Shown: positions 18,733 to 57,318, numbered from the stretch's first letter. The stretch is 64,000 nt of DNA from Deltaproteobacteria bacterium (GCA_016180805.1 JACPAM010000109.1:734-64733); one strand, 5' to 3'. A program made the numbers and translations. The notes: a model not told the origin generated them from the letters alone.

Positions 18733-18888
18733 CTCGCCCCCTCGACCGGCACACCTTCCCTTCGAAGCCCGAGGGGGACGAGGAGGAAGGCCGCGGACGT
18801 CCGATTACAGACGGTACGACTCATGGCACGAACGCATCGGCCGCGGCCTGATGGCTCGGCCCCCGAGGAGCTTTCGAGGGCATCATCG
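18733..18888 (+). repeat. structured intergenic repeat family, copy 1 (short variant)
   Basis: Shares CCCTCGAC..GAAGCCCGAGGGGGA, GAGGAGGAAGGCCGC, GGACGTCCGATTACAGACGGTACGACTCATGGCACGAAC..ATCGGCCGC and a CCCCCGAGGAGCTTTCGAGGG terminus with the other copies. Confidence 0.7.
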
Positions 18889-18908
18889 GACAAAGGGCCG
18901 AGAGTTTG

Positions 18909-18937
18909 TTGACCCGCGACAGTCTTAAGGGTAGAGT
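18909..18937 (+). promoter_or_regulatory. candidate sigma70 promoter for the liv operon (TTGACC-17 nt-TAGAGT)
   Basis: -35 at 18909-18914 and -10 at 18932-18937 with 17-nt spacing, about 35 nt upstream of the ATG at 18971. Confidence 0.35.
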
Positions 18938-18970
18938 TGAATCAAAAGCAATCCTTAAGGGGGAACCGCC

Positions 18971-20212
18971 ATGTTTAACACGAGGGTCGCCATTATAAGG
19001 AAGCTACTCGCAGGAAGCGGTATTGTAGCTGCTGCTTTCGTGCTCTTAACTTCTCTCACCGCTTTCGGCCAGGAGCCCATCAAGATCGGCATCTCTATGT
19101 CGGTGACCGGGCGTTTCGAACGTCCGGCCGGCTAGGGCCACAAGCTCTGGGAGAAACACGTTAACCAGCGCGGCGGTATTCAAGGGCGCCCCGTAAAACT
19201 CATTTTCTATGACGACAAAAGCGATCCGGCCGAAGCCATCAAGCTAACCCGGCGCCTGGCCACGGTGGACCGGGTCGATTTTCTATTCAGCCCCTACGGC
19301 AGCGAGCTGACGGCTGCTGTGGCATCGGTGATCGAAGAATTGGGAGTGCCGACGGCGGCCTCGATCGTCGCCACGCTCGCCCCATGGAAGGGCAAAAACG
19401 CCAAATGGATGACTCAGTTTAGCTCCACGGCTCCGCTCTATCTCATGGGGTCGGTGGACCTGGCTATCGAAAGGGCCGAGGCGAAAAACATCGCGATCCT
19501 CTACGAGGATACCCCATTCCCCATAGGGGTGGCCGACGGGCTTCGGGCGCGCGCCAAAGAGCGGGGGCTTAAAATCGCCATGGATGAAAAGTACGACAAG
19601 GCCCTCACCGATTGGTCACCGCTGGTCTCCAAGGCGCGAAGCTTAGGAGCCGAGTTTCTAGCCGGGGGAGGTTACTACCCCGCCGCCGTGGGCATCACGA
19701 GAGCCGCTGCCGGAATCGGCTATAGGCTCAAACTCCTGGCCCTTGTGGTCGGCGCCGCTGACCCCAAATTTGTCAAGGACCTCGGGATCCTGGCTGAAGG
19801 AGTGGCAGGCAGCGATATCTGGTTGCCCAGCGTAAAGACTAGAGGGTTCGTGGTTGAGGGCGCCACGATCGCCAACGAGGATTTCGTGCGCAGCTACAAA
19901 GAAGAGTTCAAGCGCGACCCGGAGTACTGGTCGGCCGCGGGTTATGGAGCGGGCCAGCTCCTCGCCCAAGCGGTCAACGATTCGCTGAAGCGGGCGCGCA
20001 AGGTCGATCGCAACCTTACTCGTGATTTCCTCTTTAACTTTTCGGGCGAGACAATTTACGGCGACTACGGGGTCGTAAAGCTCGGCCAGCCGGACGCTGG
20101 GATGCAGGTTAGGAAACAGCACTTCGTGATCCAGTGGCAAAAGGGGAAAAAAGAGGTGGTCTGGCCCAGGGAGTTGGCCAGCGCCGAGCCCTGGATCGGC
20201 TGGCCGCGGTAG
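18971..20212 (+). pseudogene. livK: branched-chain amino acid ABC transporter substrate-binding protein (LivK-like) with an in-frame TAG at 19133-19135
   Basis: ATG 18971 with a signal peptide (MFNTRVAIIRKLLAGSGIVAAAFVLLTS...) and then the PIKIGISMSVTG..PAG*GHKLWEKHVN ligand-binding N-lobe. The reading frame is the same before and after the TAG. Followed by livHMGF. Confidence 0.6.
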
Positions 20213-20314
20213 AGCCGGCAGGCGTTAATCGCTCATCGTCAATGGTCAATCGATTGAAGAATTATTGGCGGCGGTCTGTTTCCGCTGGGATGGTAAGGTT
20301 CATCGTCGATCGAC

Positions 20315-21184
20315 GTGGCTGACCTCCTGACCTTCATCGAGTTTTCATTGCGGGGGCTCATGGTCGGGGCGGTCTACGCGCTGATGGCGATGGGGCTTTC
20401 GCTTATATTCGGCGTCATGCGCGTCGTCAATGTCGCCCATGGCGAGTTCCTCATGCTCGGCGGGTACGTCAGCTTCTTCGCCTGGTCTTCCGTCCAACTC
20501 AACCCTATCGCCTCTCTGTTCGTAGCCATGCCGCTGCTGTTTTTCCTCGGCATGACGATTCAAAGGCTCTTCATCGAGCGCGTGGTTGGCAAGCCGGAGC
20601 TCTCTTCCCTGATGCTCTGCTTCGGGTTGTCGATCATTTTGCTCCAAGGCGCGCAACTTCTCTTTACCCCGGATCCCAGAGGCTTCACCTGGCTGCTTTA
20701 CCCCGTGCGCCTCTTGGGTTGGAATTTCCCCATGTACATGCTGATGATCTTCGCCACGAGCATGGCCATCGCTTTCGCGCTCTTTCTTTTCTTGAAAGCC
20801 ACGCGCTGGGGGAAGGCCATTCGCGCCGTATCGCAAAACTATGAGGTCGCCCAAGCCTGCGGCATCGACGCGCGCAAGGTCCGGATGCTGAGCTTCGGAT
20901 GCGGCGCGGCTATGGCGGGGGCGGCCGGAGCCTTCGTCCCCGTGCAGTTCTCGCTTTCTCCAGGTGTCGGGCATGAGTTCATCCTGAAGTCCTTCGCGGT
21001 CGTGGTCGTGGGCGGCCTGGGGAGCCTTTGGGGAGCTTTCCTCGCCGGCCTGCTTCTCGGGATCGTTGAAAGCCTCATCACCTTCTATTTCAGTTCCCAC
21101 CTCGCCCAACTGACGTTCTACGCGACCATCATTGCGGTGCTGCTCGTGCGCCCTGGAGGGCTTTTCGGCAGCGCGGAGGCCTGA
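20315..21184 (+). CDS. livH: branched-chain amino acid ABC transporter permease LivH (GTG start)
   Basis: 289 aa, LivH-type permease profile. Confidence 0.85.
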   Translation: MADLLTFIEFSLRGLMVGAVYALMAMGLSLIFGVMRVVNVAHGEFLMLGGYVSFFAWSSVQLNPIASLFVAMPLLFFLGMTIQRLFIERVVGKPELSSLMLCFGLSIILLQGAQLLFTPDPRGFTWLLYPVRLLGWNFPMYMLMIFATSMAIAFALFLFLKATRWGKAIRAVSQNYEVAQACGIDARKVRMLSFGCGAAMAGAAGAFVPVQFSLSPGVGHEFILKSFAVVVVGGLGSLWGAFLAGLLLGIVESLITFYFSSHLAQLTFYATIIAVLLVRPGGLFGSAEA

Positions 21185-21190
21185 TCTCCA

Positions 21191-22210: not shown

Positions 22211-22914
22211 TGGAGGACGGCGCGATCCTGACGCTGGAGCGGGTGAGAAAGGATTTTGGCGGGCTCAGGGCCGTGGACGACTGCTCCTTGGTGGTGGAGA
22301 CCGGAAAGATCGTGGGCCTCATCGGCCCCAACGGCGCCGGCAAGACGACTCTCTTCCAGTTGATCTCGGGAGTTCTCAGACGCGACAGCGGCCATATCTA
22401 TTTTCACGGCGACGACATCTCCCGCCTGCGTCCCCACGAGATCGCGCGCCGCGGTATCGGACGCACGTTTCAGATCACCCGCATCTTTCCGAAGATGACC
22501 GTATGGGAGAACATGATCGTCGCGTCGCACAGCGCAGGCGCCGAAGAACGGGCGCGCGCGCTGTTAGAGCTGGCCGATCTTCTGCCGCTTAAGGACCACT
22601 ATGCGGCGGAGCTGTCCTTCGGGCAGCAGAAGCTTCTCGACCTCATGCGGGTGATGATGCTCAATCCCGAGCTGATTCTTCTCGATGAGCCAGCCGCAGG
22701 CATCAACCCTACCATGCAGAACAAGATTCTGGACCTGATCCACCAGCTCAACAAAGAGGGAAGAACTTTTCTCATCATCGAACATGACATGGATATCATC
22801 ATGGGACATTGCGAGAAGGTCATCGCCTTGAACTTCGGCCGGGTCATCGCGGAAGGTCGACCCGACGAAGTGCGCGAGAACGAGGAAGTGCTGACGGCCT
22901 ATTTCGGGAAATGA
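22210..22914 (+). CDS. livG: branched-chain amino acid ABC transporter ATP-binding protein LivG
   Basis: Walker A GPNGAGKTT. ATG 22210 overlaps the livM TAA (TAATG). Confidence 0.85.
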   Translation: MEDGAILTLERVRKDFGGLRAVDDCSLVVETGKIVGLIGPNGAGKTTLFQLISGVLRRDSGHIYFHGDDISRLRPHEIARRGIGRTFQITRIFPKMTVWENMIVASHSAGAEERARALLELADLLPLKDHYAAELSFGQQKLLDLMRVMMLNPELILLDEPAAGINPTMQNKILDLIHQLNKEGRTFLIIEHDMDIIMGHCEKVIALNFGRVIAEGRPDEVRENEEVLTAYFGK

Positions 22915-23669
22915 CGCAAGCCAACCACGTCCTGCTGCGAGTTGGGACGATCGTCGCCGGGTACGGACTCAAGGAAGTTCTCCACGGCGTGTCCCTTCAC
23001 CTCCGGTCACGAGAGATCGTGGCCGTCATCGGTCCGAACGGCGCAGGTAAATCGACCGTGCTCAAGACGGTGATGGGGTATTTAAAACCCCGATCCGGCG
23101 AGATCCTCTTTGACAACCGGGATATCACGGGGCGCGAGCCCCACGAGCTTGTGTGGCTGGGCATCTCCTTTGTGTCCCAAGGCCGGGTGATATTCCCGGA
23201 TATGACCGTGCAAGAACATCTGGATATGGGCGCGTGGACTCTGCCCGCCCGCAAGCGTGCCGAGGCATACGAGAAGGTCTACAACCTCTTTCCGCGCCTG
23301 GCCGAACGCAAGGGTCAAAAAGCGGGCACGATGAGCGGGGGCGAGCGGCAAATGCTCTCCTTGGCCCGGGCGCTGGTCATCGAGCCGCGATTGCTGATTT
23401 TAGACGAGCCCTCCTTGGGGCTATCGCCCAAGTTTGTCGATCAGGTCTTCGAAAAAATTGTCGAGATCAATCAACTGGGAGTGTCCGTTTTGATGGTGGA
23501 GCAGAACGCCGCCAGGGCTTTGCAAAGCTCCCATCGGGGATACGTGCTGGAGCTAGGCGAGAACAGGTTTGAGGGACCGAGCCATGCTCTTTTGGCCGAT
23601 GAACAAGTCCGCCGGCTCTACCTCGGAGGGCGCCGGGGACTGGCTCCCGAAGGGTGCCTGTCCCCGTGA
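22911..23669 (+). CDS. livF: branched-chain amino acid ABC transporter ATP-binding protein LivF
   Basis: Walker A GPNGAGKST and signature SGGERQ. Start ATG 22911 overlaps the livG TGA (ATGA). Confidence 0.85.
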   Translation: MTQANHVLLRVGTIVAGYGLKEVLHGVSLHLRSREIVAVIGPNGAGKSTVLKTVMGYLKPRSGEILFDNRDITGREPHELVWLGISFVSQGRVIFPDMTVQEHLDMGAWTLPARKRAEAYEKVYNLFPRLAERKGQKAGTMSGGERQMLSLARALVIEPRLLILDEPSLGLSPKFVDQVFEKIVEINQLGVSVLMVEQNAARALQSSHRGYVLELGENRFEGPSHALLADEQVRRLYLGGRRGLAPEGCLSP

Positions 23670-23695
23670 CGAACATAGCTTTGCCTTCTGTCGCT

Positions 23696-23852
23696 AAGCT
23701 CCCTCGGGGAGCGCGCTCTCCGCTGCGGCCGATGGGTTGTCCTCGCTTCGCTCAGAATTTCAGATTGCAGATCTCAGATCTGAGATTTGAAATTTGCGAT
23801 TTGCAATCCCGAAGGGCTTGTCCGCAGCCTCGCTCGCGCTCCCCTCGGTCGC
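23696..23852 (-). repeat. structured intergenic repeat family, copy 2 (reverse orientation, with AT-rich palindromic internal module GATTGCAGATCTCAGATCTGAGATTTGAAATTTGCGATTTGCAATC)
   Basis: Contains the reverse complement of the GCGACCGAGGGGAGCGCGAGCGAGGCTGCGG and ..CATCGGCCGCAGC.GAGAGCGCGCTCCCCGAGGGAGC modules. Lies between the convergent liv and ssu-like operons. Confidence 0.65.
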
Positions 23853-23889
23853 AAAGAACGACCTCCTGCTGTCGGTCCTGCCGCCGTTT

Positions 23890-24894
23890 CTACCCGCCGA
23901 GCCGCTTCAGCGCCTCCTGGCGGTACGAGTCGTCGATGAACATCGACGCGGGATAAGCCTTTTCCAGGGCCTTGCGCTCGACCTCGAGGTTGATCACCGT
24001 CTCGATGCCTTTGATGCTGGGGGCGGCGTCATTGCGGATCGGCCGCAAATCTTCCATCACCTCTTTGTAGGCCAGCGCGGCATATTTCGGACTGATCTTG
24101 AAGTGGTTGAGCATCGCTTTGATGGTCGTTTCCTTGTTCTTGGGATCGGTCATGAATCTCATCGCCTTGATCATCGCCATCAGATAGCGCACGGTAACGT
24201 CCCGGTGGCTTTCCATCCACCTCGCATGTCCCGCAATCGTGGTGAATTGATAGTCCGGAAGATAGGTCGCGATGTTTGCGACGACATTCAAGCCTTCCTC
24301 TTTGGCCTGATAGGAGGTCGGGATAGTGACCATGGCACCGGAAACCGCGCCTTTTTTGACGGCAGCATAGCGCTGCGGAGTGCCCCCTACGGTCAACAGA
24401 TCGTAATCTCCAGGATACTTAAGCCCGTGCGCGGACATGATCTTCTGCAACAGGGCCGTGCTTCCCGAGGTCAGATTGATGACCCCGAAGGTGGTCCCTT
24501 TGAGATCCTCTACCTTCTTATATTTGGGGCCGGTAATGAGATCGTAGATCGCTTTGGTATAATTCCCCGCGACGATTTTGATCGGAGCATTCTTGATCAT
24601 GGCCGTGATCGAGCCCTGCGTGTTCGTGGGGTAAAGTATGTCGGTGGAGTTAGCGGATAAAGCCTGGATTGCTTTAGCGATCGAATTCGTCTGGAACTCA
24701 CGCAGCTCGAGATTCTGTTCTTTGAAATAGCCTTGATCTATGGCCACCCATATGGGCCAATGATCCCCTCCCGTGGATAGAATCCCGAGTTTGATCTCGT
24801 CTGCCGCGCGTAGCTGGCCGGGCAGGAAGATGACAAGCAAAGCCGCGGCAGTAAGCCCGATTACTGACTTCGGCACCACCGATCTTAAGTCCAT
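23890..24894 (-). CDS. ABC transporter substrate-binding protein, NMT1/SsuA/TauA family
   Basis: 334 aa with signal peptide. Last gene of the minus-strand ABC operon. Confidence 0.75.
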   Translation of the reverse strand: MDLRSVVPKSVIGLTAAALLVIFLPGQLRAADEIKLGILSTGGDHWPIWVAIDQGYFKEQNLELREFQTNSIAKAIQALSANSTDILYPTNTQGSITAMIKNAPIKIVAGNYTKAIYDLITGPKYKKVEDLKGTTFGVINLTSGSTALLQKIMSAHGLKYPGDYDLLTVGGTPQRYAAVKKGAVSGAMVTIPTSYQAKEEGLNVVANIATYLPDYQFTTIAGHARWMESHRDVTVRYLMAMIKAMRFMTDPKNKETTIKAMLNHFKISPKYAALAYKEVMEDLRPIRNDAAPSIKGIETVINLEVERKALEKAYPASMFIDDSYRQEALKRLGG

Positions 24895-24936
24895 GACCGT
24901 CCCTCCTTTTTACGGTGACATTTCGAGTCCAACCCC

Positions 24937-25719
24937 TTATACCCTATACTCGTACCACGGAGCAATCCTGCGCTCCGCGTATTTCAACAGCTCAAACGTC
25001 GTGTAACCTCCGATCGCCAACAGCACCACCCCGACGAATGCGTCGGCTGTTCGGAAGGCCTCCGAGGCCTCCGAGATCAGATAGCCGATTCCCGCCCTGG
25101 AGCCGAAAAACTCGCTCACGATCGCGCCGATGATGGCCCGCCCTACGCTCAAACGAAGGCCGGTCATGAGCAGCGGGAGCGCGCTCGGCACGGTCACCTT
25201 GAAAAATATTTGTCTCCCGGTCCCGCCGAAGGCGCGCACCGCTTCGACCAAGCGACGGTCGACCGTGGTGATACCCGTATACGTGTTGAACAACACGGGG
25301 AAGACCGCACCGATGAAAACGATGGCGATCTTCGAGGCGATGCCGACGCCAAGGGCGGTGATAAAAAGCGGCGCGAGGAGAATAATCGGAGCGTTATAAG
25401 AAATCGTTACCCAAGGATTCAGGATGTCTTTGGCGGTCCGGCTGAGCGCCATCAAAACGCCCAGGCCGATCCCGATCACGACGCCGACCAGATAACCCAG
25501 GATGAATTCGACAAACGTCGCATAGACATGGCGCGCGATCTCACCCCGCGCGAGCAGGTTCATGAAGGCTTCGGCGATCCGCGAAGGCCCGACGAGGATC
25601 AGCGGATTGTCGATGAAGAGGCCATCGACGATGTCCCACGCCACGATCCCCAGGATGACCGACGCGACGGCGTCAACCTTCTTCTCGTTCGCGCGATAGA
25701 TCTGCCTCAGCCATCCCAT
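24937..25719 (-). CDS. ABC transporter permease (SsuC/TauC-type)
   Basis: 260 aa, BPD_transp_1-type profile. Confidence 0.8.
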   Translation of the reverse strand: MGWLRQIYRANEKKVDAVASVILGIVAWDIVDGLFIDNPLILVGPSRIAEAFMNLLARGEIARHVYATFVEFILGYLVGVVIGIGLGVLMALSRTAKDILNPWVTISYNAPIILLAPLFITALGVGIASKIAIVFIGAVFPVLFNTYTGITTVDRRLVEAVRAFGGTGRQIFFKVTVPSALPLLMTGLRLSVGRAIIGAIVSEFFGSRAGIGYLISEASEAFRTADAFVGVVLLAIGGYTTFELLKYAERRIAPWYEYRV

Positions 25720-25721
25720 CG

Positions 25722-26573
25722 TTATTCCATCTCCATGCCGTGGACCTCACGCCGAACCTGATACGCGTACCAGGGAGAAATCCATCCCTGGACTTTGTCT
25801 AGCGCAATGAACGACAGAATGCCGAACACGACCAGAACCACGATCCCGACAAACACCGGGCCGGGCTGAAAGAGCTGAGAATAGAAGTACACCATATACC
25901 CAAGCCCGGCTTCCGCCCCAAACCACTCGGCCACCACCACGCCGATGACGGCGCGACCCACCGCGAGCCGGAGCCCCGCGATGATCGCGGGAGTCGCATC
26001 CGGAATCATAACCTTGAAGAACACCTGGAGCGGCGACCCGCCAAAGGCCCTCACCAGCTCGATGAGATTCTGCCTGACGGATTTGATGCCGGTGTACGTG
26101 TTTAGCAGGATCGGAAAGACGGCCCCGAGGAAGACAATCAGCGCGTTCGGGAAGATCCCCAGCCCAAACCAGACGATGATGATCGGGGCCAGGGCAACGC
26201 GGGGGGTGGCGTAAATGCAGGAGACCCATGGGTCGAGGCAGGTGTTGATCTTTTTTTGCGTCGCCATGAGAAACCCCACGGGGATCCCAACCACGACGGA
26301 CAATACAAATCCGTACGCGAATTCCAGGAGGCTGAAATAAGAGTGCCTGAAAAGCTCTCCGCTTCGATAAAGCTCGCCGAAGGTCTCGATCACCTGAAGC
26401 GGCGAAGCGAGGAAGTGCTGGATCGCATAAGCCTCAAAGTAAGGAGTCCGAGCCAAACCCTCGTAGGCAAGCTGCCAGATGCCGATCCCAACAACCACCG
26501 AGTATATGGCGATCATCCGGGATGAGCGCGCCCAAGCGGGGACACGAGGCTCTGCTTTCGCCACGGTCTTCAC
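25722..26573 (-). CDS. ABC transporter permease (SsuC/TauC-type), second permease
   Basis: The ORF extends to 26828, but a GTG at 26573 overlaps the ATPase TGA (GTGA) and gives a short positively charged N-terminus before TM1. The start is uncertain; the alternative is ATG 26516. Confidence 0.65.
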   Translation of the reverse strand: MKTVAKAEPRVPAWARSSRMIAIYSVVVGIGIWQLAYEGLARTPYFEAYAIQHFLASPLQVIETFGELYRSGELFRHSYFSLLEFAYGFVLSVVVGIPVGFLMATQKKINTCLDPWVSCIYATPRVALAPIIIVWFGLGIFPNALIVFLGAVFPILLNTYTGIKSVRQNLIELVRAFGGSPLQVFFKVMIPDATPAIIAGLRLAVGRAVIGVVVAEWFGAEAGLGYMVYFYSQLFQPGPVFVGIVVLVVFGILSFIALDKVQGWISPWYAYQVRREVHGMEME

Positions 26574-27388
26574 CGCATCCCTTCCTCGCGCTCTCTTCCC
26601 ATGGACTTGAGCACCTCGTCCTGGATGATGCTCCAGACGCGATCGGCGAGATCGAGAAATTCCTTGGTTCTTTTGACGCTCAGCGAACGGGGTCGAGGAA
26701 TGCTCACTTTGACGATCTCTCGGATGGTGGCGGGACGGGCCGAGAACACCACCACCCGGTCCGAGAGGAAAATCGCCTCTTCGATCTGGTGGGTGACGAA
26801 GATCACGGTCTTCCTCGTCTGGTTCCACATCTTTAAGAGCTCGGCTTGCATGATCTCCCGCGTTTGCGCGTCCAACGACGCGAAAGGCTCATCCATGAGG
26901 AGCACCTGCGGGTCAACGATCAGGGCGCGCGCCAGGTTGACGCGCTGCTGCATCCCTCCGGAAAGCTCGTGAGGATAGTGATTCTCAAAACCCGCGAGTC
27001 CCACGAGCGAAATATACCCTCCCGCTTTCCTCCTCGCCTCTCGCGTATCGACTCCCTGAAGCTCGAGGCCCAGAATGACGTTATCCATGACCGTGCGCCA
27101 AGGCAGAAGGGAAGAGTCCTGAAAGACGAACCCCTTGTCCGGGCCGGGCTTGATAACGGTCTTGCCGTCGAGAAGGATCTCTCCATCATCGTGGGAGATG
27201 AGCCCGTCGAGGATGCGCAAAAAAGTCGTCTTCCCGCACCCGCTCGGTCCCACCAGGGAGATGAACTCCGAAGGATGAACCTCCAGAGAAATATCTTCAA
27301 ACACCTGGACCGATTCCTCGGATCTCTGGCTGCGGAAAGCCTTGCGTAAATTGCGCACGACGAGTTTCGATGCAGGAGTTTCCATCAT
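26570..27388 (-). CDS. ABC transporter ATP-binding protein (SsuB/TauB/NitT family)
   Basis: Walker A GPSGCGKTT, signature LSGGMQQR. Confidence 0.85.
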   Translation of the reverse strand: MMETPASKLVVRNLRKAFRSQRSEESVQVFEDISLEVHPSEFISLVGPSGCGKTTFLRILDGLISHDDGEILLDGKTVIKPGPDKGFVFQDSSLLPWRTVMDNVILGLELQGVDTREARRKAGGYISLVGLAGFENHYPHELSGGMQQRVNLARALIVDPQVLLMDEPFASLDAQTREIMQAELLKMWNQTRKTVIFVTHQIEEAIFLSDRVVVFSARPATIREIVKVSIPRPRSLSVKRTKEFLDLADRVWSIIQDEVLKSMGREREEGMR

Positions 27389-27399
27389 ACCTCGGCCGC

Positions 27400-27560
27400 G
27401 TTCCCTCGAAAGCTCCTCGGGGGCCCGATCCGCCTCAGGCGGACGCGCACGTGCTTATCCGCGACCGAGGGGAGCGCGAGCGAGGCTGCGGACGTCCGAT
27501 TACAGACGGCACGACTCATGGCACGAACCCATCGGCCGCAGCCGAGAGCCCTTCCTATGC
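27400..27560 (+). repeat. structured intergenic repeat family, copy 3
   Basis: CCCTCGAAAGCTCCTCGGGGGCC..CGCCTCAGGCGG..GCGACCGAGGGGAGCGCGAGCGAGGCTGCGGACGTCCGATTACAGACGGCACGACTCATGGCACGAACCCATCGGCCGCAGCCGAGAG. Confidence 0.7.
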
Positions 27561-27607
27561 AAGGGCGAAAACTGTTTCACGAGCGTTCCTCTGCACCTTC
27601 CAGATGT

Positions 27608-28078
27608 CTAACGCCGGGCTCCCTCCAATGCCTCTACGATGGTATCCCCTTCCAGAGCCAGCTCGAGCGTGCCGAGAAGCTCGTCGTACTTCTCTCCGCC
27701 GATCATGGCTTTCATTGCGGGCTCGAAGACATGGTAGGTATCGAGGCCGAGCTCGACCCCGGTCAACGGACCCGAGTAGGTGGGATCACCGCGGGTGACC
27801 GTCTCGAATTGAATCAGGGAGCTATCGACGTTGGGCGCTCCCAGGAGTACAACGAGATTATTTCTGCCAAGACTTTCGGCGAGTTCTTTGATTCGACCTT
27901 GAACCTCAAGGTCCATGGCGCCGGCCGCGGTTCAGACAAAGCACTGCGTCGTGGAATAGACGATTTCCGCGCCGAGGTCTCCCACTGCCTCCTCGATCGT
28001 CTGCGCCGGGACTCCGTCCCTCTCTCCGAGGATGATGAGCTTTTTCCCCGCTAAACCCAGTTCCTTTGTGCCTGCCAT
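27608..28078 (-). CDS. grdA: glycine/sarcosine/betaine reductase complex selenoprotein A (GrdA), in-frame TGA = selenocysteine at 27932-27934
   Basis: Minus-strand translation from ATG 28078 (SD AAAGGACGGCGGAGG) gives MAGTKELGLAGKKLIILGERDGVPAQTIEEAVGDLGAEIVYSTTQCFV-U-TAAGAMDLEVQGRIKELAESLGRNNLVVLLGAPNVD...GDPTYSGPLTGVELGL... This matches GrdA, including the conserved CFVU-TAAGAMDLE redox motif. The ORF track reports only the post-TGA part (27608..27916). Confidence 0.85.
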
Positions 28079-28104
28079 AAGAACCTCCGCCGTCCTTTCT
28101 TTGC

Positions 28105-29550
28105 CTAAGGATGCCGCGCGAGCAAAACCGACATGCCATCGCTCAGTTGGGTCATCTGTCCGAGGAACAAACTCGCCCGGGCGAAAAGAAAACAGTTCCG
28201 AGCTTCCCCCTCGGTCAATTCCCGGTGCGCATGGGGAAGATAAGCCAGGGCCGAAGCGATATGCCCCTGGGTCGGGGCAAAACCAGGAACCCCTTTTCGC
28301 TTCATGAAGTCCTGCATCTCAGAGCGCGCCATCTTACCGCCGGAAACCAAGACTGCAGCCAGCATCTTGTAGTTGCGCTCCGGGATATCGCCGCCGTTGG
28401 CCGGCACGGTGATCTCGGGATTGTGCAGCTCGGTCACGAATCTGTCCACAGAGGCTGCGGTTAAATCCAACCGCTCCATCGGCTCCAGCACGATCGCCTT
28501 GAGCTGCTTATCCAACGCCGCCCCTGACCGCACCGGGTGACGCCCCACGCTGGCGAGGTTGATTACCGGGCTTTTGCCATCGTCCCGCCCGATCCAAACC
28601 GCGGCCGCAGCCAGCACGTCCTCGAGCACCGGCATGCCCTTCTCCAAATGGTAGAGAAATTTCATACCGAGTTTCGGGAGCGAGGCGCCGCCGACAACGA
28701 CGACGTTCTCAAAGACACCGCTGTGCACCAGCGCGGCTCCGGTCACGAGAGCCGGAATCGGGGCGGCGCAGAAGTTTTTGATGTCCATACCGGAGGCCAG
28801 CACGCAACCAGCAAACTCGGCCACGGCCTTGGCGAGATTGCCGCCGCCGCGCTGGTAGCGATCTCCGACCGCCTCCTCCGAACAGCTCAAGACGTAGTCG
28901 ACTTTCTGTTCCGAGAGCGCAGGATGGCGCATCAGGAGCTCGCGAACCGCCAAGGCCGCGGAAACCTTGACACAGAGATTCTCTAGCAAAACGTTCGCCG
29001 TAAGCGAGCCATCCTCATGATGCGCGTGTCTGATCCAGCCGATCGGTTGAGAATCGGTGCCGGTAAAGAGCGCGATCCCGTCCCCCTTGGCTATATCGGC
29101 GCGGAGCCGGTCGCGCGTGACGAGCGAGGGCGAGACTGTAGCCAAGGGCTGGAACAGCGGCACCGCCCGCAAACGCGGGCTGATATCCTGCCAAAAACCT
29201 TCAAATAAAGAAACGTGTTTGAAGACATCAGCGAGGGCCACAAGCCCGACGAAAGATCGCTCATCGATGAAATCGCCGAAGGCCCGACGATCGTTCGCGA
29301 GCGGTGATGGCCGCCCATACCACGGCCTTTCTACCTCGTAAAGGCTGGAGATGGGCGTCTGGCCAAGAAACACCCGGTTCGGCAAGTAAGCCTCGGCCTG
29401 TTCATGGGATTGGAGGCTCTTTTGAAGCTCATCAAGCCTCGAAGGGCGGTCTTGAATCTCCCGCCACGGCTTGGAGCCATAGCGGACGAGCCCGGGGGCG
29501 TGGATCAACACGCTGCTTGCGCCGTTAACAACGGGGGTGAAGCTCGCCAT
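28105..29550 (-). CDS. grdC: glycine/sarcosine/betaine reductase complex component C beta-subunit-like protein (GrdC)
   Basis: 481 aa. Blocks VLIHAPG, QRGGGNLAKAVAEFAG, KNFCAAP, NYKMLAAV, APTQGHI and GxxSLFLGQMT align with GrdC as recalled from memory. Confidence 0.65.
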   Translation of the reverse strand: MASFTPVVNGASSVLIHAPGLVRYGSKPWREIQDRPSRLDELQKSLQSHEQAEAYLPNRVFLGQTPISSLYEVERPWYGRPSPLANDRRAFGDFIDERSFVGLVALADVFKHVSLFEGFWQDISPRLRAVPLFQPLATVSPSLVTRDRLRADIAKGDGIALFTGTDSQPIGWIRHAHHEDGSLTANVLLENLCVKVSAALAVRELLMRHPALSEQKVDYVLSCSEEAVGDRYQRGGGNLAKAVAEFAGCVLASGMDIKNFCAAPIPALVTGAALVHSGVFENVVVVGGASLPKLGMKFLYHLEKGMPVLEDVLAAAAVWIGRDDGKSPVINLASVGRHPVRSGAALDKQLKAIVLEPMERLDLTAASVDRFVTELHNPEITVPANGGDIPERNYKMLAAVLVSGGKMARSEMQDFMKRKGVPGFAPTQGHIASALAYLPHAHRELTEGEARNCFLFARASLFLGQMTQLSDGMSVLLARHP

Positions 29551-29555
29551 CCTTC

Positions 29556-29700
29556 AAAACTCTCCGGCATTCCTTCGAAAGCTCCTCGGGGCCGAGCCGC
29601 CTCAGGCGACCGAGCAGAGGGCTTCGGGACTCCCTTCGCTCCACGGGACTGCGCGACGCGACCCCAGTTTGGTCTATTTCGTCATTTAGTCTTTGCATCG
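29556..29700 (+). repeat. structured intergenic repeat family, copy 4 (partial/divergent), inside the grd cluster
   Basis: Shares CTTCGAAAGCTCCTCGGGGCC..GCCGCCTCAGGCG with copy 3. Inserted between grdE and grdC. Confidence 0.55.
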
Positions 29701-29785
29701 ACCGAATGACCAAACGACCAGATAGACCAAAAACCACCCGGCGTAGTCCATCGTCCACGGGCTTCTTTCTCGTCCCTGCGCCGCC

Positions 29786-31090: not shown

Positions 31091-31105
31091 CCACCTTTTC
31101 TCGAA

Positions 31106-32437
31106 TCACACGGTCGCGGAAATGTTCGGATAGAATAACGTCGGCTGTTTAACCTCCGCATGGATGGCCTTGAGCGCGGTCTCCACGATCTCGCGTCTCA
31201 GCCGTGCATCGACCTCGGACGGCAGACTGGGATCACCGCACGGATGCGGAATGCTCACGGCTTTGACGATCCGGCTCGCTCCGACCTGCTCCGCGATCGG
31301 ATACATAGCGCTGATAATCGCCACCGGCAATCCCGCTCGATCAATTTCCTTGCTAATCACAGCACCGCTGCGACTGCACGTCCCTCAGGTCGCTACCAAT
31401 AGGACCCCATCGATCTGCTCCTTCTTGAGGTCGGCGGCGATCTCCTGCCCGATGCGCTTCATGACCGAGGGCGATCCCTGGTTCCCTGGAACGACGTAGT
31501 AGCTGTGGTAGAGGCGGAATCTTCCATCGGATTCCGACGCGCGCAACGCGTCGAGAGGCAATCCATAATGGGGGTTCTGATTCATGAACGCGACGTTGTA
31601 ACCGCCGTGAACTGCCTCCCACTTTCCCGGCTCCAAGACCTTCAATTCCGAAATATTGTACTTCTGCCAAAACGTGTTGCGGTAGGTCTTGAAACGGTCC
31701 GGATTGCCCCACGGCACCACCCCGCTAGTGGTAATCACGGCGATGGTCGCCTGCCGCTCCGGCGAAAGCGGCGGCGCCGGCACCGCGCGATCCCAGATTT
31801 GCACCGGAACTTCGGTCACGAAAGGCTCATTGCGGAGCCGTTTGAGAAGCATCTCGACGGCGCGCTCCACGCCGGGCCGGTCGGTCCGCTCGAGCCGCCG
31901 GATGCCCCGAGGGATATAGCCTTCTTCTCTCGCCGGTCCCAACTCCTCGCCACTCCCCAACCTGCAGGCGAATCCTGCCATCGCCATCAAAGCCTCGTTC
32001 ATCCCTGCAGCCGTCTCTCTAGTGGGCAGCAAATAGACGTTGAGATCGTGGTACCCGCGATAGGCGTCCACCGCGGGATTTTCCTCGTGCATCGCAGTCA
32101 CGCATGGAATTCCCAAACTCTCCGCCACGCCGTGACAAACCTCCACACAGCCGACCCCGTAGCGTCCAGAGTTGAAGGCGGGACCAGCAACGACCACCTG
32201 GGGCTTGCGGGAGCCGATTTCTTTGAGAATGGCGGCCTTGGCCTCTTCAGGGTGTTCGTGAAAGTAGTTGTCGCCGAAATAGATCGTCGCGACGACCTTG
32301 CCCTTATCACCGAGCTGTGCCTGTAAGCCACGCGCCGCTCCCGTCGCGCCCTCGGCTGTCCCCACGGGCACTCCCGCCTTATCCTCGCCCCCCAGACCGG
32401 CGAAGAATTGATTGATGACGTGGACAACAGTGACCAT
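31106..32437 (-). CDS. grdB: glycine/sarcosine/betaine reductase selenoprotein B (GrdB/GrdF/GrdH family), in-frame TGA = selenocysteine at 31385-31387
   Basis: ATG 32437 with an AAGGAGG SD. MVTVVHVINQFFAGLGGEDKA...AGPAFNSGRYG... runs to ...DGVLLVAT-TGA(U)-GTCSRSGAVISKEIDRAGLPVAIISAMYPIAEQVGASRIVKAVSIPHPCGDPSL... This reproduces the conserved ...T-U-GTC..GA motif and C-terminal tail of GrdB. The ORF track splits it into 31385..32437 and 31106..31360. Confidence 0.85.
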
Positions 32438-32654
32438 GATCGTTACCTCCTTGCGCTGTTTACCCCAGCCACCGAGACTTTGTCAACGCTGCCGTTTTGC
32501 CTTGATTCCCGGCTCTTTCGGGGCCTATAGTGACCCGCGTAAGCCCGGCAGTCTCAAAGGAGGAAGCTATGTTTCCCCATCGCAAAAATTTCAACTTGAA
32601 ACGGCAGACAAAAGGGACAATGGCTGAGACTGATTTAAGCAAGGAGGGCACGAA

Positions 32655-40997: not shown

Positions 40998-41169
40998 ATT
41001 ACCTTCCCTCATTAATTGCGGACATCAGGGTTAACGAGCGCCTTCTATCATAGATCATTCTGAAAGGCCACACGTGCTATTTTTCCTGAACACTCAAACG
41101 CCACTGCGCGATAGTTAGGGGACCTCGCCCAGCTTCGGACTTGACTAAACGCCCGTGGGTCGGACCACG

Positions 41170-41973
41170 CTATGTCTCAGTGTTTTCAGCGTTTTCCTTC
41201 CAAAAGATAGTATTCTCGGGCGTTAGCACCTCACTTTCGCCCCGAAAATCACCCGCATAAGCCTCTCTTTCTTCCCGCAATACGTACGTTCCGCCGATCT
41301 CCGCGACTTTGCGATGTATGGCTTTGATCCCAAGCTCGTTCTTAACGTTGTCAATAAAAGCCGAACTGCCAACGGCGATAGCCTCTGACCAGCGATCGTC
41401 TCGCACCGCCATCCCGCGCATTAGCGCTTCCTCAACCCATTGGCGGTGTGCTTGCTGAAAATCCGCTACTTCCCCAAAGCCACATAAGGCGCTTAGGCCC
41501 CGAAGATCGATAATCCCATAGCGCTCGGGTGGCTTTTGAATCTCGCGGTAGCCACTCTGTGCCCATTCGCTTGGATGCTGAACCACACGTGCCCGTACCA
41601 TGTTCAAGTCAATATAGACAAGACAGCGATGCAGGTGCTCGTCGGCCTCGATAGCGGTGGCATGGTAACGATCCTCCCAGAACGCTCCCTGCCGCCCTTT
41701 GCGCTGGTTGTATTCTTGCGCGGTGCGTCCGGCAATTAGCTGCATGCTCTGCGGAATCACCTCTCGGCCCGTATCCCTTACCAGGAGATGCACGTGGTTG
41801 GACGTCACCATATAGTTAAGCACCGAGAGGCCGAATCGCTTTTTGGCCTTAAAGACCCAATGCAAGTAACGGCGTCGATCCCGCGCAAACTTCAAGAGGA
41901 ATGTCTTGTGGTGGCAGCGGTGAGTGATGTGCCAAATGTAGCCGGGCAGAAAATGGCGGCTGGCGCGGGGCAT
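41170..41973 (-). mobile_element. REP-associated tyrosine transposase (RAYT, IS200-like TnpA_REP)
   Basis: 267 aa. HuH motif NHVHLLV, RKGRQGAFWEDRYHA..., YIDLNMVRARVV..PSEWAQSGY with a catalytic Tyr. Flanked by the inverted 10-mers GGGTCGGACC (near 41146) and GGTCCGACCC (near 42083). Confidence 0.8.
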
Positions 41974-42176
41974 CGCTTCTATTCCTTAGAGTGGATAATT
42001 CACTGTCAAAAACGCGCCGCTAAGCCTCTGAAGCGCTTCTATTCTTGAATTTTTTGGCGTGAGATCAGTACCTTGCCCAGGTCCGACCCCGCGCTGCCCC
42101 GCGCTGGTGAAGGCGATGTGCGCCCAGAATATGGGAACGTCCGTTTTTCCCCAGCAGAATCGAGTAAAATTCCTAG

Positions 42177-44429: not shown

Positions 44430-44432
44430 AAC

Positions 44433-46130: not shown

Positions 46131-46166
46131 GGGGACACTCCCCCTTCCGGAAAGGGGAGTGTCCCC
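46131..46166. promoter_or_regulatory. 36-bp near-perfect palindrome GGGGACACTCCCC-cTTCCGGAAa-GGGGAGTGTCCCC (candidate operator)
   Basis: 13-bp perfect inverted arms around a palindromic TTCCGGAA core. Ends 7 nt before the SD (GAGGAG) of the CoA-ligase gene, in the divergent promoter region shared with the FAD/FeS/Mo operon. Confidence 0.45.
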
Positions 46167-46185
46167 CTCGCGAGGAGCATTGGGT

Positions 46186-47778: not shown

Positions 47779-47789
47779 CTCAGCGGTCC

Positions 47790-47897
47790 GCGACCGAGGG
47801 GAGCGCAAGCGAGGCTGCGGACGTCCGATCACAGACGATGCGACTCATGGCACGAACCTATCGGCCGCAACCGAGAGGGCGCTTCCCGAGGGAGCTT
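47790..47897 (+). repeat. structured intergenic repeat family, copy 5 (core only)
   Basis: GCGACCGAGGGGAGCGCAAGCGAGGCTGCGGACGTCCGATCACAGACGATGCGACTCATGGCACGAACCTATCGGCCGCAACCGAGAGGGCGCTTCCCGAGGGAGCTT. Begins 12 nt after the ligase stop. Confidence 0.7.
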
Positions 47898-47964
47898 AGT
47901 CCATCGGCCGCCGCCTGGGTCTGCAAGCACTACCGGACAGCGGAAATACGCGAGCGGAAAGTAA

Positions 47965-48696: not shown

Positions 48697-48790
48697 GGCG
48701 ACCTTACAAGCTGATGACATAAGAGCGGCTTAACGGGCACTTTCACCTATCAGTCAGTCTGCACAGCACCACCGTTAGCGCCCCGAATCG

Positions 48791-49681: not shown

Positions 49682-49760
49682 CCCTTTCCAATGGCCGGGC
49701 TTTGGGACAGTCCCCGCCGGGCTGGAGAATGCCCGGTTAATTGCCGGATAGGGGTGAGTC

Positions 49761-51476: not shown

Positions 51477-51525
51477 GCGCACGCTCGGCGGCGGACCTGC
51501 AAAGGGAACTTTTTACCATTTCATT

Positions 51526-52491
51526 CTACCGCCTTACGGCGAGCTCCCTGGGAAAGCTTTCGTCGATGAAGTCCGTAACCTTGAACTTTCCTTTGAGCTT
51601 GCCGGCCTCCGATTCCATGAGAAGCTCGAAACCTTTGGTTGGAATCCTCCCGTCGAAGGCAAAGGACTTCATAAACTCTTTGTAGCCTGCCTCCGCATAT
51701 GCGGGACTGATCTTGACGTCATCGGTGAGCACCTTGACCCCGCCGGCTGGATTTGCCTTGAGCCACTCCAGCGCCTTTACGTGAGCCCTGAGGTACCGCA
51801 TCACCTTATCCCGCTCGCCCCTGAGCACTTTAGCCATGGCGTAATAGCCCAGATAGGGCCAGTCCGTGATGATGTCGTTGAGATCCGCGAGCATGCGGTA
51901 GCCCTCCTTGGCGGCAATTAGAGTCACAGGAAACCACATGATAGTCCCATCCACGCCGCCGCTCTTCAATGCCGCGTAACGGGCCGGCGTCGAGCCGATC
52001 TGCAGAACCGTCACGTCCTTCGCGGGATCGAGGCCAAGCTTGGAGACCGCGTAGCGGGTGAGGAAATCCGATTGCGCGCCGAACCGACTGACGGCCAATC
52101 TCTTTCCCTTGAGATCCGCGGCCGACTTAATGTTGGGGTGGACGTAAAGCTTGAAAGGCATGAAGTTCGAAATGCCGAAAAAGAACCGAGCATCTTCGCC
52201 GGCGAGGCGGATCGTAAAAACCTCCGTGCCCGAGCCCAGAGCGATGTCGATCTCGCCTGCCAGCGCCGCCTGTGAATTGATCGTGCCGCTGGTGAAAACG
52301 ATCGGCTCAACGTTAAGACCAACATCTTTGAAATAGCCCTGCCGCTTCGCCACCCAAACGGGCAGGGTCGTAGGAGCCAAAGACGTGAGCCCCACTCGCA
52401 TCCGCTCCTGCGAATAACCTGGCGCGACGGAAAGCAAGAGCACGAGCGCGGGCATAACGATCCACCAATAGATGCCGCGGAAAATTCCCAT
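51526..52491 (-). CDS. ABC transporter substrate-binding protein, NMT1/SsuA-like, orphan
   Basis: 321 aa with signal peptide. Paralogous to 57329..58282. Confidence 0.7.
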   Translation of the reverse strand: MGIFRGIYWWIVMPALVLLLSVAPGYSQERMRVGLTSLAPTTLPVWVAKRQGYFKDVGLNVEPIVFTSGTINSQAALAGEIDIALGSGTEVFTIRLAGEDARFFFGISNFMPFKLYVHPNIKSAADLKGKRLAVSRFGAQSDFLTRYAVSKLGLDPAKDVTVLQIGSTPARYAALKSGGVDGTIMWFPVTLIAAKEGYRMLADLNDIITDWPYLGYYAMAKVLRGERDKVMRYLRAHVKALEWLKANPAGGVKVLTDDVKISPAYAEAGYKEFMKSFAFDGRIPTKGFELLMESEAGKLKGKFKVTDFIDESFPRELAVRR

Positions 52492-52569
52492 GGCATTTCC
52501 CCCTTTCCACAGACGGAGTTTTAACTAATACAAACGACTTAACTCGTGTTACGTTTCCTCAGGGGGCAA

Positions 52570-52745
52570 GCCTTCCGGCCGCAGCCGATAGACTAGGCTC
52601 CCTCGGGAAGCCCGCTCTCGGCTTCGTGCCATGAGTCGTACCGTCTGTAATCGGACGTCCGCAGCCTCGCTCGCGCTCCCCTCGGTCGCGAGCAAGCATG
52701 TCTGCGTCCTTCAGTCTCGCCCCCTTCGGAAGCTGTTGTCGTATC
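52570..52745 (-). repeat. structured intergenic repeat family, copy 6 (reverse orientation)
   Basis: Contains the reverse complement of the GCGACCGAGGGGAGCGCGAGCGAGGCTGCGGACGTCCGATTACAGACGGTACGACTCATGGCACGAA core. Confidence 0.7.
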
Positions 52746-52825
52746 AGAGGAGAAGTTGTAACCATTTTCATTTCGTTTGTATTAGTCCTTCTGGACTGTC
52801 AAACCAAAGCGAGAGGTGTCATCGG

Positions 52826-55132: not shown

Positions 55133-55410
55133 CTTGTTTGTGGCACACGCGAGCACTCCAGGTGCCATTTCTGGAAGTTACAGGACTGAGTAACGAGTGC
55201 TGAGGACTGAGCCTTCTTACTTGGCCCTCAGTCCTCATCGCTCAGTCCTATTTTTATTTGCGAATTTTCGGACTGTCTTTTTCCGGAAAATACAGATCGC
55301 AGAAGGGACAGTGAAAATCCATGCCGGATCCCAACATGTGGGGGTTGACGACAAAAATCTTTCTGCACTTTGGACAACTGACTTCTACGGCTTGACCCAT
55401 GGATTACTTC

Positions 55411-55463
55411 CTCTCACCCTCTCCCTACCCTCTCCCTGTGAGGGAGAGGGCAAGGGTGAGGGT
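55411..55463 (+). repeat. REP-like GC-rich palindromic element, copy 2 (CCCTCTCCC-tgtg-AGGGAGAGGG + CAAGGGTGAGGG), immediately 3-prime of UbiD paralog 3
   Basis: Same hairpin and GGGTGAGGG tail as the 1981-2014 element, in the same orientation. Abuts the TAA stop of the 55463..56911 gene. Confidence 0.6.
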
Positions 55464-56911
55464 TAGCACCAGTACGTGGTCCGATCGATCGGGATGTGCT
55501 GCAATATCTCCCCGGGGATATAGTCCTCCAGCTTGATCCTCTCCATCGCGTCATCCGGGCACTTGGAGACCGGCGAGAACGGCCGGTCCAGAGGCCGGGT
55601 CGCATCGATGATCATTCCTGAGGTCTTGATCTCATCGACCAACGATGGATCCAAAAAGTTGCCCCGAAACAAGGGCTGGAGAACCGAGACCTGCTGGTGG
55701 GGCTGCACCCGAGTGGCCAACGCCCAGAGGATGTCCGTCGGGTTGTAGACATCGATGTCGTCGTCAAAAACGAAAACGTTCTTGGTGTGATCGAACGTCA
55801 GCGCTGCGGCCGCGGCCCGCCCGGGGTCCCCCTCGGACATCTTCTTCATCGAGATGAAAACGTTGTAGTGGGCGTGGCGTCCCATCTTGCACACCGCCGT
55901 GACTCCCGGAATAGCCTCACGGCAGCGGCGCAGGTAGGCCCCCTCGCGCGGCAGGTCCATCCACGGCTTGTCCCCCTCCGGCGTGATGACCGATTGGTAC
56001 ATCCCGCCCCTGCGGTAATTGATAGCCCGAACTTCATAATGGACGCACGTGGTATAGCGCTGGGGGCCAAGATAGCCCGGCGCCTCACCGAAAGGCCCCT
56101 CGACGATACGCTTCCCTGGAATCAAGGCACCCTCGATGACGATCTCGGCGTCCGCGGGGATGAGCAGATCCTCACCCCAGGTCTCGGAGGGAGTCAGCCG
56201 AAGCGGCTCCTGGAGATAACCGCCGATGATGTCGAACTCGCTGACTTCGAAAGGGCCGCTGTAGCAAGCGCCCATGTGATACGCCGGATGGTGGCCCAGG
56301 ACAGTGGCCACCGGACATTCCAGGTTGTTGTCTTCATGATCGCGGAAGATCTTCCACAAGTGGCGCGGGGAGGCATAGAGCGCGGTCTTGTTCTTCGACT
56401 TCACCTCCATCCGGTGATAGGAGCAGTTATAGATACCGCTCTTCCGATCCCGCGTAATCGTCGACAGGACGATGTAGGGGCCGCCATCCATGTAGTGGTG
56501 GCGCATGATCGGAAGCTCGTAGAGATCGACTTCGGGCCCCTTTTTGACAACCTCTTTGACCGGCGCGCTCTTCTTGTCCACGATAACAGGCGGAATGCGG
56601 TGCTCCTCCCGCTCCAGACAGACCTCGGCCATCTGGGTCCGGTTCATTTCTCGCGGCACCCCCAAGGCGATCTGGGTCTTCCGCTGGGAGATCTCGCAGT
56701 TCATGACGAGCTTGAACTCGCTGCTGACCCTTCCGTGCAGGTTGCGAGGCCGGTCGAAGATCAATATCGGAAACTTTTTCATCGCGCCCAGATGCTTGAT
56801 TACGGCCGTGACGTCGTACTGGGCGGGATCTACTTCTTTGGTGACGTGGACCACCTCGTTGGGAATCTCTCGCTGGCATTCCTCTAAAAACGTCCTCAGG
56901 CTCTTCGGCAT
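55463..56911 (-). CDS. UbiD-family (prFMN-dependent) decarboxylase, paralog 3
   Basis: 482 aa, with a UbiD profile. Confidence 0.85.
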   Translation of the reverse strand: MPKSLRTFLEECQREIPNEVVHVTKEVDPAQYDVTAVIKHLGAMKKFPILIFDRPRNLHGRVSSEFKLVMNCEISQRKTQIALGVPREMNRTQMAEVCLEREEHRIPPVIVDKKSAPVKEVVKKGPEVDLYELPIMRHHYMDGGPYIVLSTITRDRKSGIYNCSYHRMEVKSKNKTALYASPRHLWKIFRDHEDNNLECPVATVLGHHPAYHMGACYSGPFEVSEFDIIGGYLQEPLRLTPSETWGEDLLIPADAEIVIEGALIPGKRIVEGPFGEAPGYLGPQRYTTCVHYEVRAINYRRGGMYQSVITPEGDKPWMDLPREGAYLRRCREAIPGVTAVCKMGRHAHYNVFISMKKMSEGDPGRAAAAALTFDHTKNVFVFDDDIDVYNPTDILWALATRVQPHQQVSVLQPLFRGNFLDPSLVDEIKTSGMIIDATRPLDRPFSPVSKCPDDAMERIKLEDYIPGEILQHIPIDRTTYWC

Positions 56912-57039
56912 GCAGCCCTCCTAATAGCGAAAACGAATAAATTCTCCCAATTTAGAACAAAAATTTCTAGCGCAATCGCCCGCGCTTTTCAACCCAAGTA
57001 GGGGCGGGTTTCAAACCCGCGCCTACATTCCCCTTTGCC

Positions 57040-57318
57040 CTCGCCGCCTCAGGTGGATTGCCCCCTCGACAGGCACGTTTCCACTTCGAAGCTCGAGGGG
57101 GACCAGGAGGAAGGCCGCAGTCTAGCTTGCCCGCGACCGAGGGGAGTGCGAGCGAGGCTGCGGACGTCCGATTACAAACGGCACGAATCATGGCATGAAC
57201 CCATCGGCCGCAGCCGAGAGCGCGCTCCCCGAGGGAGCTTCCTGACGGGGACAGGCACGCAAGCGAGCCAGTCCCCTTGCCGCGGCCTTCTTCCTCGTCC
57301 CCCGAGGAGCTTTCATAG
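57040..57318 (+). repeat. structured intergenic repeat family, copy 7 (longest, composite: contains all modules)
   Basis: CCCCCTCGA..TCGAGGGGG hairpin, GGAGGAAGGCCGC paired 160 nt downstream with GCGGCCTTCTTCCTC, the central core GCGACCGAGGGGAGTGCGAGCGAGGCTGCGGACGTCCGATTACAAACGGCACGAATCATGGCATGAACCCATCGGCCGCAGCCGAGAG, and the terminus CCCCCGAGGAGCTTTC. Confidence 0.7.

Follow-up and report, generated by a model that had tools for sequence, protein, structure and literature searches.

The DNA considered here (the window) is a 64,000-nt stretch of a contig from a metagenome-assembled genome (MAG) labeled Deltaproteobacteria bacterium (GCA_016180805.1, JACPAM010000109.1:734-64733). It has a GC content of 59% and a gene content that is metabolic and transport-related, including UbiD-family decarboxylases, molybdenum hydroxylases, a glycine/betaine reductase operon, hydantoinases, and many NMT1-type binding proteins; no tRNA or tmRNA was found in the window using ARAGORN. 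For one window protein the nearest named relatives are labeled Binatia, at 63–65% identity. Our subject is a family of palindromic repeats found at seven sites in the window, which is a lineage-specific and non-coding family of mosaic palindromes, probably non-autonomous and resembling MITEs (miniature transposable elements bounded by inverted repeats). The window was compared with 66 related loci, which are designated by L-numbers (L004, L035, L066, etc.). Since L035, from the MAG JACPFH01, is orthologous to window positions 25217-28440 at 88% nucleotide identity, JACPFH01 is regarded as a related species.

All seven sites listed in the initial annotation are present, and the blocks that they share are far beyond chance. 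The two halves of a common core (26 and 27 nt) have five and four matches in the window, respectively, at three or fewer mismatches, where none are expected in dinucleotide shuffles; the A-arm GCGACCGAGGGGAGCGCGAGCGAGG has five window matches and the terminal motif CCCCCGAGGAGCTTTCGAGG has four, and an independent repeat search of the window recovers the same families. The shared core had been ascribed to the family as a whole, but is found at only five of the seven sites (18793, 27488, 47817, and 57160 on the plus strand, and 52623 on the minus strand), with copy 2 retaining stubs only and copy 4 possessing peripheral modules only.

The apex common to the core-bearing copies is 52 nt long, GCGG-ACGT-CCGAT-[TACARACGGTACGACTCATGGCACRAACCC]-ATCGG-CCGC. 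It is asymmetric and consists of an 8-bp stem (GGCYGCGG/CCGCRGCC), an ACGT bulge, a 5-bp stem (CCGAT/ATCGG), and a 30-nt loop, with a CGTC tetranucleotide immediately 5' of the inner stem. This core forms the apex of three or more types of shell (A, B, and C), the arms of which are different in sequence, are each self-complementary, and add 25–60 nt per side. Shell A places the core between GCGACCGAGGGGAGCGCGAGCGAGGCT and AGCCGAGAGCGCGCTYCCCGAGGGAGCTTAG; shell B places it between ..CTTCGAAGCCCGAGGGGGACGAGAAGGAAGGCC and GGCCTGATGGCTCGGCCCCCGAGGAGCTTTCGAGG, or a second right-arm variant, GGCCTTCTTCCTCGTCCCCC, which pairs perfectly with the left arm; and shell C places it between ..GGTTCCGAAGGGGGCGTGGCTGGAGGCC and GGCCGGAAGACGCGCCCCCGAGGAACGTAAC...

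Shells B and C are small non-coding units with terminal inverted repeats, and occur in many copies in unrelated flanks. Shell B (~200 nt) has the ends CTAGCCCGGATT../..AATCCGGGCTAG, with 12–13-nt inverted repeats at both ends in three full copies, and about half of the B right arms (~14) extend to the terminal end GAATCCGGGCTAG. Shell C (~215–260 nt) starts with CTAATACAAACGTCTT and finishes with AAGACGTTTGTATTAG, and its 16-nt terminal inverted repeats are found in six copies with unrelated flanks; the end sequences of the family include CTAATACAAACGTCTT and CTAGCCCGGATTC. The ends of both shells read C-TA..TA-G, in which TA may represent either a duplication or a portion of the repeat itself. 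Shell A, which usually carries an extra outer stem (GGCCGCGGACGTGCTTGYCC .. TTAGTCCATCGGCCGCGGCC), is often nested in B or C exactly at the position of their own core, and the shell interiors are quantized: 52 nt corresponds to the core alone, 138 nt to the outer stem, A, and core, and 165–167 nt to these three together with a mini-hairpin (module D), while interiors of 100–194 nt contain an AT-rich palindrome replacing or interrupting the core loop. No empty shells, which would mark the core as an insertion, were found among the copies measured. Chimeric copies do exist, for example L063, which combines an A left arm with a B right arm.

Copies 1, 5, and 3 serve to illustrate these modules. 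Copy 1 (plus strand) consists of a B-shell left arm with its own hairpin, CCCCCTCG..CGAGGGGG (18737-18792; four mismatches to the B-left consensus, aligned with nine MAG copies), the 52-nt apical core (18793-18844), and a B-shell right arm, GGCCTGATGGCTCGGCCCCCGAGGAGCTTTCGAGG, with no mismatches to its consensus (18845-18879). Copy 5 (47790-47915, plus strand) begins 12 nt past the stop codon of an acyl-CoA synthetase gene and comprises the A left arm, the core (47817-47868), the A right arm, and the right half of the outer stem (47900-47915). In copy 3 (plus strand), the region 27404-27460 contains a reversed B arm (27404-27423), the CCGCCTCAGGCGG hairpin (27430-27442), and the left half of the outer stem (27441-27460), and is followed at 27461-27549 by the A left arm (27461-27487), the core (27488-27539), and a truncated A right arm.

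Of the remaining copies, copy 6 (52525-52785, minus strand) is a C shell between terminal inverted repeats (CTAATACAAACGAAAT at 52770-52785, and the complement of ..AAGTCGTTTGTATTAG at 52525-52540), in which an A shell is nested (52663-52689 and 52593-52623, minus strand) around a core lacking its 3' 12 nt (52623-52662, minus strand). The fullest composite is copy 7 (57044-57314, plus strand), with a hairpin, CCGCCTCAGGTGG (57044-57056), the B left arm (57061-57116), the A left arm (57133-57159), the core (57160-57211), the A right arm (57212-57242), the D mini-hairpin (57247-57276), and the B2 right arm (57284-57314); it folds into a single long nested hairpin of -143 kcal/mol. Copy 2 (23694-23852, minus strand) has A-shell arms (left, 23826-23852; right, 23694-23724) and the core stubs GCGGAC/CCCATCGGCCGC. 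The AT-rich palindrome reported for one copy is located here, where ~83 nt of AT-rich tandem-motif palindrome with two AGATCT sites replace the core loop. Copy 4 (29573-29731, plus strand) is a decayed mosaic made up of a reversed B arm (29573-29592), the CCGCCTCAGGCG hairpin (29597-29609), an F module (29619-29648, minus strand), and an AT-rich palindrome (29668-29731). Some sites proved larger than first delimited, with copy 6 extending over 52525-52785 and copy 1 being accompanied by a module at 18669-18712.

This latter accessory repeat, the G module (ATGGTTCACCRGTCTCGG..GAGGGCAA, plus strand), is a conserved 44-nt sequence, ATGGTTCACCGGTCTCGGGGGCAAGCCTCTCCGGCCGAGGGCAA, which always adjoins a B-type left arm (window, L009, L014, L045, and L052). 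It has no Rfam match and the genes downstream of it differ among loci; it is therefore probably another repeat module and not a riboswitch. The D mini-hairpin GGGGACAGGCAC..GCCAGTCCCC next to copy 2 (23635-23665, minus strand) is found also in copy 7, L015, L021, L029, and L037. The final ~12 codons (23635-23669) of an ABC ATPase ORF (open reading frame; 22809-23669) enter this mini-hairpin, and the annotated C-terminus may be repeat-derived. Palindromes made up of tandem short motifs form a separate class, located at 61042-61112, 55182-55249, 29668-29731, and 23756-23801 in the window as well as in L007, L016, L019, L022, and L023, with motifs such as CAATAGT, GGACTGAG, GTTCAA, GATTTT, and GGTCGTC. 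Some stand alone in the spacers between genes, whereas in family copies they are located within the core loop or substitute for it.

The family has no coding capacity. Each copy had been thought to give rise to a spurious ORF with the same peptide, but the exact peptide, GRPITDGTTHGT, is encoded by three copies only, with the variants GRPITDDATHGT and GRPITNGTNHGM at the copies with cores at 47817 and 57160, respectively. Only two matches to this repeat-derived peptide were found among 5.8 billion proteins.

When species-representative genomes were scanned for the exact pattern, at least 45 core matches on at least 43 contigs came to light, and the matches listed all belong to one groundwater MAG, JACPFH01; a profile search of these loci added inexact copies. 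In the JGI metagenome collection, only 15 contigs carry the core pattern, while blastn against a plasmid collection gave no similar sequence and a scan of viral contigs gave none. A full-text literature search for six family sequence strings yielded chance matches to an 11-mer only. Given the predominance of JACPFH01 among the matches, the few JGI contigs, and the null viral, plasmid, and literature searches, the family is abundant within a narrow lineage and otherwise without known match. The concern that the copies might be collapsed repeats arising in assembly is answered by the fact that independent assemblies (the NCBI MAG contig, Logan contigs, the JACPFH01 MAG, and JGI metagenomes) contain the family again between other flanking sequences.

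MAG contigs often start or end within ~300 nt of a family copy (L006, L010, L012, L014, L016, L021, L033, L034, L037, L040, and L042), and among the causes of fragmented assemblies in this lineage the repeats appear to be a principal one. Researchers working with these genomes should keep in mind that the family breaks assemblies, with many MAG contigs ending inside copies.

When 56 copies were placed relative to genes called with a codon-usage model, 51 were plainly intergenic. The other five, which appear to lie within genes, are best explained as over-extended, spurious, or weak ORF calls. In L004 and L042, every Pfam domain begins downstream of the repeat; two of the five copies belong to L012, where the NMT1 domain stops at residue 245 of a 355-residue call; and the ORF that overlaps the copy in L030 is a weak call with a score of 10.9. 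Masking the family would improve gene calls in this lineage, as in the case of the spurious ORF at 27518-28054 and of L004 and L042, where 5' ends are over-extended. Orientation relative to the flanking genes is mixed, with 16 copies antisense and 7 sense between tandem gene pairs, and a further 9 and 7 between divergent and convergent genes, respectively. The genes found between inverted pairs of copies are all ordinary metabolic or transport genes.

Genes for NMT1-type substrate-binding proteins are unusually frequent beside copies (23890-24894, 51526-52491, and 57329-58282 in the window, and in L012, L038, and L004), which may just reflect the abundance of NMT1 genes in the genome.

Pairing is conserved in an alignment, a property on which the initial annotation had let the family depend. 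RNAalifold on 51 aligned copies gave 20 pairs, of which five show compensatory changes, and 98.5% of the cells pair, compared with 30–50% once the partners have been slid by 1–3 columns. One reading of this conservation is that the family represents structured RNA, either a small RNA (sRNA) or cis-acting hairpins, with the apical core as the functional part. Conservation of the core sequence extends over different shells and two genomes, with co-variation of the arms, the fold of copy 7 is stronger than that of shuffled sequences (z = -5.4 on the plus strand and -3.3 on the minus strand), G-U mismatches are slightly more numerous than A-C mismatches on the plus strand (30 vs 12), and several B-arm ends lie 10–25 nt upstream of start codons. 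However, DNA palindromes equally predict compensatory changes in the arms, the loop shows no covariation, and 16 of the 30 G-U cells derive from one polymorphic column, so that the asymmetry test is uninformative. Searches of the whole window against Rfam at gathering thresholds gave zero matches and those of copies 1 and 7 at E-values up to 10 gave matches at chance level only, antisense copies outnumber sense ones, and neither a sigma-70-like promoter nor an intrinsic-terminator-like site was found inside any window copy. At some sites, moreover, the core is truncated or swapped for an unrelated palindrome. The transcribed sRNA family suggested at first is therefore not upheld, and we regard a structured RNA of either kind as quite unlikely.

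Comparison with relatives reveals that individual sites have changed. At the copy-3 site, both flanks are common to the window and L035, and the inner unit of A and core is inverted. The spacer between the reductase genes at the copy-4 site measures 235 nt in the window and 39–65 nt, with no repeat, in L047, L048, and L050 (76–82% protein identity); in L047, which has ~85% nucleotide identity to the window, ~195 nt are missing. In L066, a closer relative (91% protein identity), this site carries an A arm that is not found in the window. The shell itself can be swapped, since the same site has A-type arms in L022 and B-type arms in L054 (82% nucleotide identity). On a shorter time scale, a precise 36-nt hairpin, CCTTCGATGTACTCAGGGCCTGAGCTTGTCGAAGG and one ambiguous C, is present in L054 (~7862-7897) and absent from L058 (9256) and L064, these loci being 99.6% identical apart from it. 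The mini-palindrome was gained or lost very recently. Copies that are inverted, swapped, or lost between close relatives could be employed as strain markers, to separate strains and to time divergence.

Might such palindromes have arisen where they are found, with no transposition, by template-switching or fold-back errors during replication followed by homogenization through gene conversion? The AT-rich inserts are palindromes of tandem short motifs, the D mini-hairpin seems to reuse adjacent sequence as one of its arms, and the interiors of L022 and L054 are swapped at a fixed site, all of which would suit local growth. Yet the same units of 100–260 nt, with identical ends, are found at dozens of unrelated loci, a distribution that growth in place cannot bring about, and gene conversion requires that copies already be present at those loci. 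This explanation is very improbable.

The sole transposase-like gene in the window encodes a 267-aa Y1_Tnp protein (41170-41973, minus strand), which the initial annotation took for a RAYT (REP-associated tyrosine transposase; REP, repetitive extragenic palindrome) that could mobilize the family. The protein scores 63.6 bits against the NCBIfam REP-transposase model, for which the cutoff is 80. The gene is bracketed by a 10-nt inverted repeat, GGGTCGGACC, at 41157-41166 and 42080-42089; 4 nt separate the stop codon from one copy, and the other is located ~107 nt upstream of the start. The motif was found nowhere else in the compared loci, and reading of the flanks revealed no family modules. 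Y1 genes that are flanked by unrelated terminal repeats have been designated TIRYT, and the window gene, with its own inverted repeat at the flanks, resembles that arrangement (PMC3733652). A GTAG-tagged REP-like hairpin, GTAGGGGCGGGTTTCAAACCCGCGCCTAC, is located just left of copy 7 (56998-57026); it was considered as the REP for the RAYT and rejected, as the window has only one copy of it and the 66 loci have none.

These observations bear on whether the family consists of REP- or REPIN-like hairpins moved as single-stranded DNA by a Y1 (HUH) transposase, encoded at 41170-41973 or elsewhere in the genome. Such an origin would be in keeping with the sub-threshold match of the window gene, a hairpin-built family with a conserved apex in which target duplication is not demonstrated, and the CGTC that precedes the inner stem and recalls CGTC-tagged REPs (PMC3733652). 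A weak bias of copy orientation relative to local GC skew (41 vs 23, p = 0.03) is likewise what insertion into single-stranded DNA at replication forks would lead one to expect. Against this, the flanks of the Y1 gene carry its own repeat and no family module, and a tblastn search found no Y1_Tnp homolog in 240 kb around 43 copy-bearing loci. REPs are defined as imperfect palindromes of 20–40 nt with an unpaired GTAG or CGTC tag, an 8–9-bp stem, and a 4–5-nt loop (PMC3733652), while the units here are 110–280 nt with a 30-nt loop, and shells B and C possess terminal inverted repeats, which REPs lack. The family is high-copy and extragenic, as REPs are, but has neither their geometry nor a RAYT flanked by the same repeats. 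Mobilization by the gene at 41170 finds no support in these results, and a REP-type origin in general is unlikely.

A family of MITE-like mosaic repeats accounts best for the observations as a whole, and we consider it the probable explanation, because there are seven sites in 64 kb and at least 45 matches in JACPFH01, with unrelated flanks at discrete ends; because copies are intergenic, of mixed orientation, without coding capacity, and subject to turnover between relatives; and because arms differ yet remain complementary, interiors are quantized with no empty shell, and chimeras occur. In this respect, the modular element of MITE or BIME (bacterial interspersed mosaic element) type originally proposed has held up: the units are non-coding, intergenic, and built of nested palindromic modules, two shell types have terminal inverted repeats in unrelated flanks, and copies are inverted, swapped, or absent at orthologous sites.

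As a mechanism, we propose that the B and C units would be moved in trans by a transposase encoded elsewhere; judging from the sequence of their C-TA...TA-G ends, a TA- or CTAG-targeting DDE enzyme of IS630 type would be compatible. By way of the GGCYGCGG/CCGCRGCC stems that they share, copies could then recombine with, or convert, each other, giving rise to chimeric arms, inverted units, and sites where one shell has taken the place of another. The same process might produce the Russian-doll forms, in which an A unit, in some cases with a D mini-hairpin or AT-rich palindrome, occupies the core position. Any effects on neighboring genes would be a by-product, arising for instance from long hairpins in read-through transcripts or from B-arm ends just upstream of starts; no effect on the neighboring metabolic operons is shown in this sequence analysis.

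Several points weigh against transposition of this kind. No DDE transposase was found in the window, in ~440 kb of loci, or between inverted copy pairs. No clean pair of filled and empty sites at high identity was found for a whole unit among the loci compared, and the C-TA..TA-G ends could simply belong to the inverted repeats and not be target-site duplications. Shell A has only long arms, with no distinct short terminal repeats, and the nested forms are not simple TA insertions. The orientation bias with GC skew, although modest, runs counter to this explanation. Core similarity between the two genomes (~0.88-0.90) is about the same as within them, while coding DNA differs by 12%, which hints at a constraint not explained by purely selfish bursts.

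A more specific proposal is that the 52-nt apex is a self-contained module, serving as a recognition hairpin for an enzyme or host factor, with the hairpin apex being a specific target for insertion or replacement. We consider this rather unlikely. If true, palindromic elements would colonize one another's loops, and the module would have been maintained with hardly any change in two species and in no fewer than three carriers. To our knowledge, spread by targeting of hairpin apices has not been described for bacterial MITEs or REPs.

Two further features of the window should be recorded for those annotating related genomes. The grdA-like gene at 27608-28078 (minus strand) has an in-frame TGA inside the motif CFV*TAAG, this being the selenocysteine codon expected for selenoprotein A, and the gene is consequently split into pieces of 48 and 102 aa in ORF lists; the grdB-like gene (31106-32437) is apparently split likewise by an in-frame TGA. 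In addition, a near-perfect palindrome of 18+18 nt, GGGGACACTCCCCCTTCC/GGAAAGGGGAGTGTCCCC (46131-46166), overlaps the predicted GTG start (46159) of an acyl-CoA synthetase ORF.

How does the family compare with repeats that are already known? The ERIC/IRU elements of enterobacteria and the Correia/NEMIS elements of Neisseria are MITE-like imperfect palindromes. The present family is like them in being 100–250 nt in length, non-coding, and intergenic, with long imperfect hairpins in both orientations, size variants that result from insertions into fixed internal positions, and short inverted ends that have TA-type flanks. It has no sequence similarity to them, however, and differs in placing one conserved, asymmetric 52-nt apex in three or more carriers whose arms and ends are not alike, in its systematic nesting (interiors of 52, 138, and 166 nt), and in its host, an uncultured lineage labeled Deltaproteobacteria. 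Bacterial MITEs of the IS630/Tc1 type include RUP and Nezha, and short terminal inverted repeats ending C-TA...TA-G on shells B and C, compatible with TA duplication at CTAG, are a point of likeness; here, however, the terminal repeats of B and C are unrelated to each other while the center is the same. The IS200/IS605-derived PATE are defined by hairpins in a subterminal position, by the lack of terminal inverted repeats, and by insertion on the 3' side of a constant tetra- or pentanucleotide. They were also considered and rejected, as the sequences to the left of A units, being shell remnants or unrelated, have no short target in common, and B and C have terminal inverted repeats.

With the BIME and REPIN-RAYT systems, the family shares high-copy extragenic palindromes arranged in mosaics, lineage-specific families, and a Y1 gene in the same region (PMC3116915, PMC3733652). 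The units are nevertheless far longer than REPs and lack a GTAG tag, their stem and loop geometry is unlike, and the Y1 gene is flanked by a repeat of its own and not by the family. The family offers a tractable case in which to study how palindromic repeats diversify, whether by transposition, recombination between copies, or growth at hairpin tips. It resembles ERIC, Correia, and BIME elements in behavior, and is a member of none of them by sequence or defining features.

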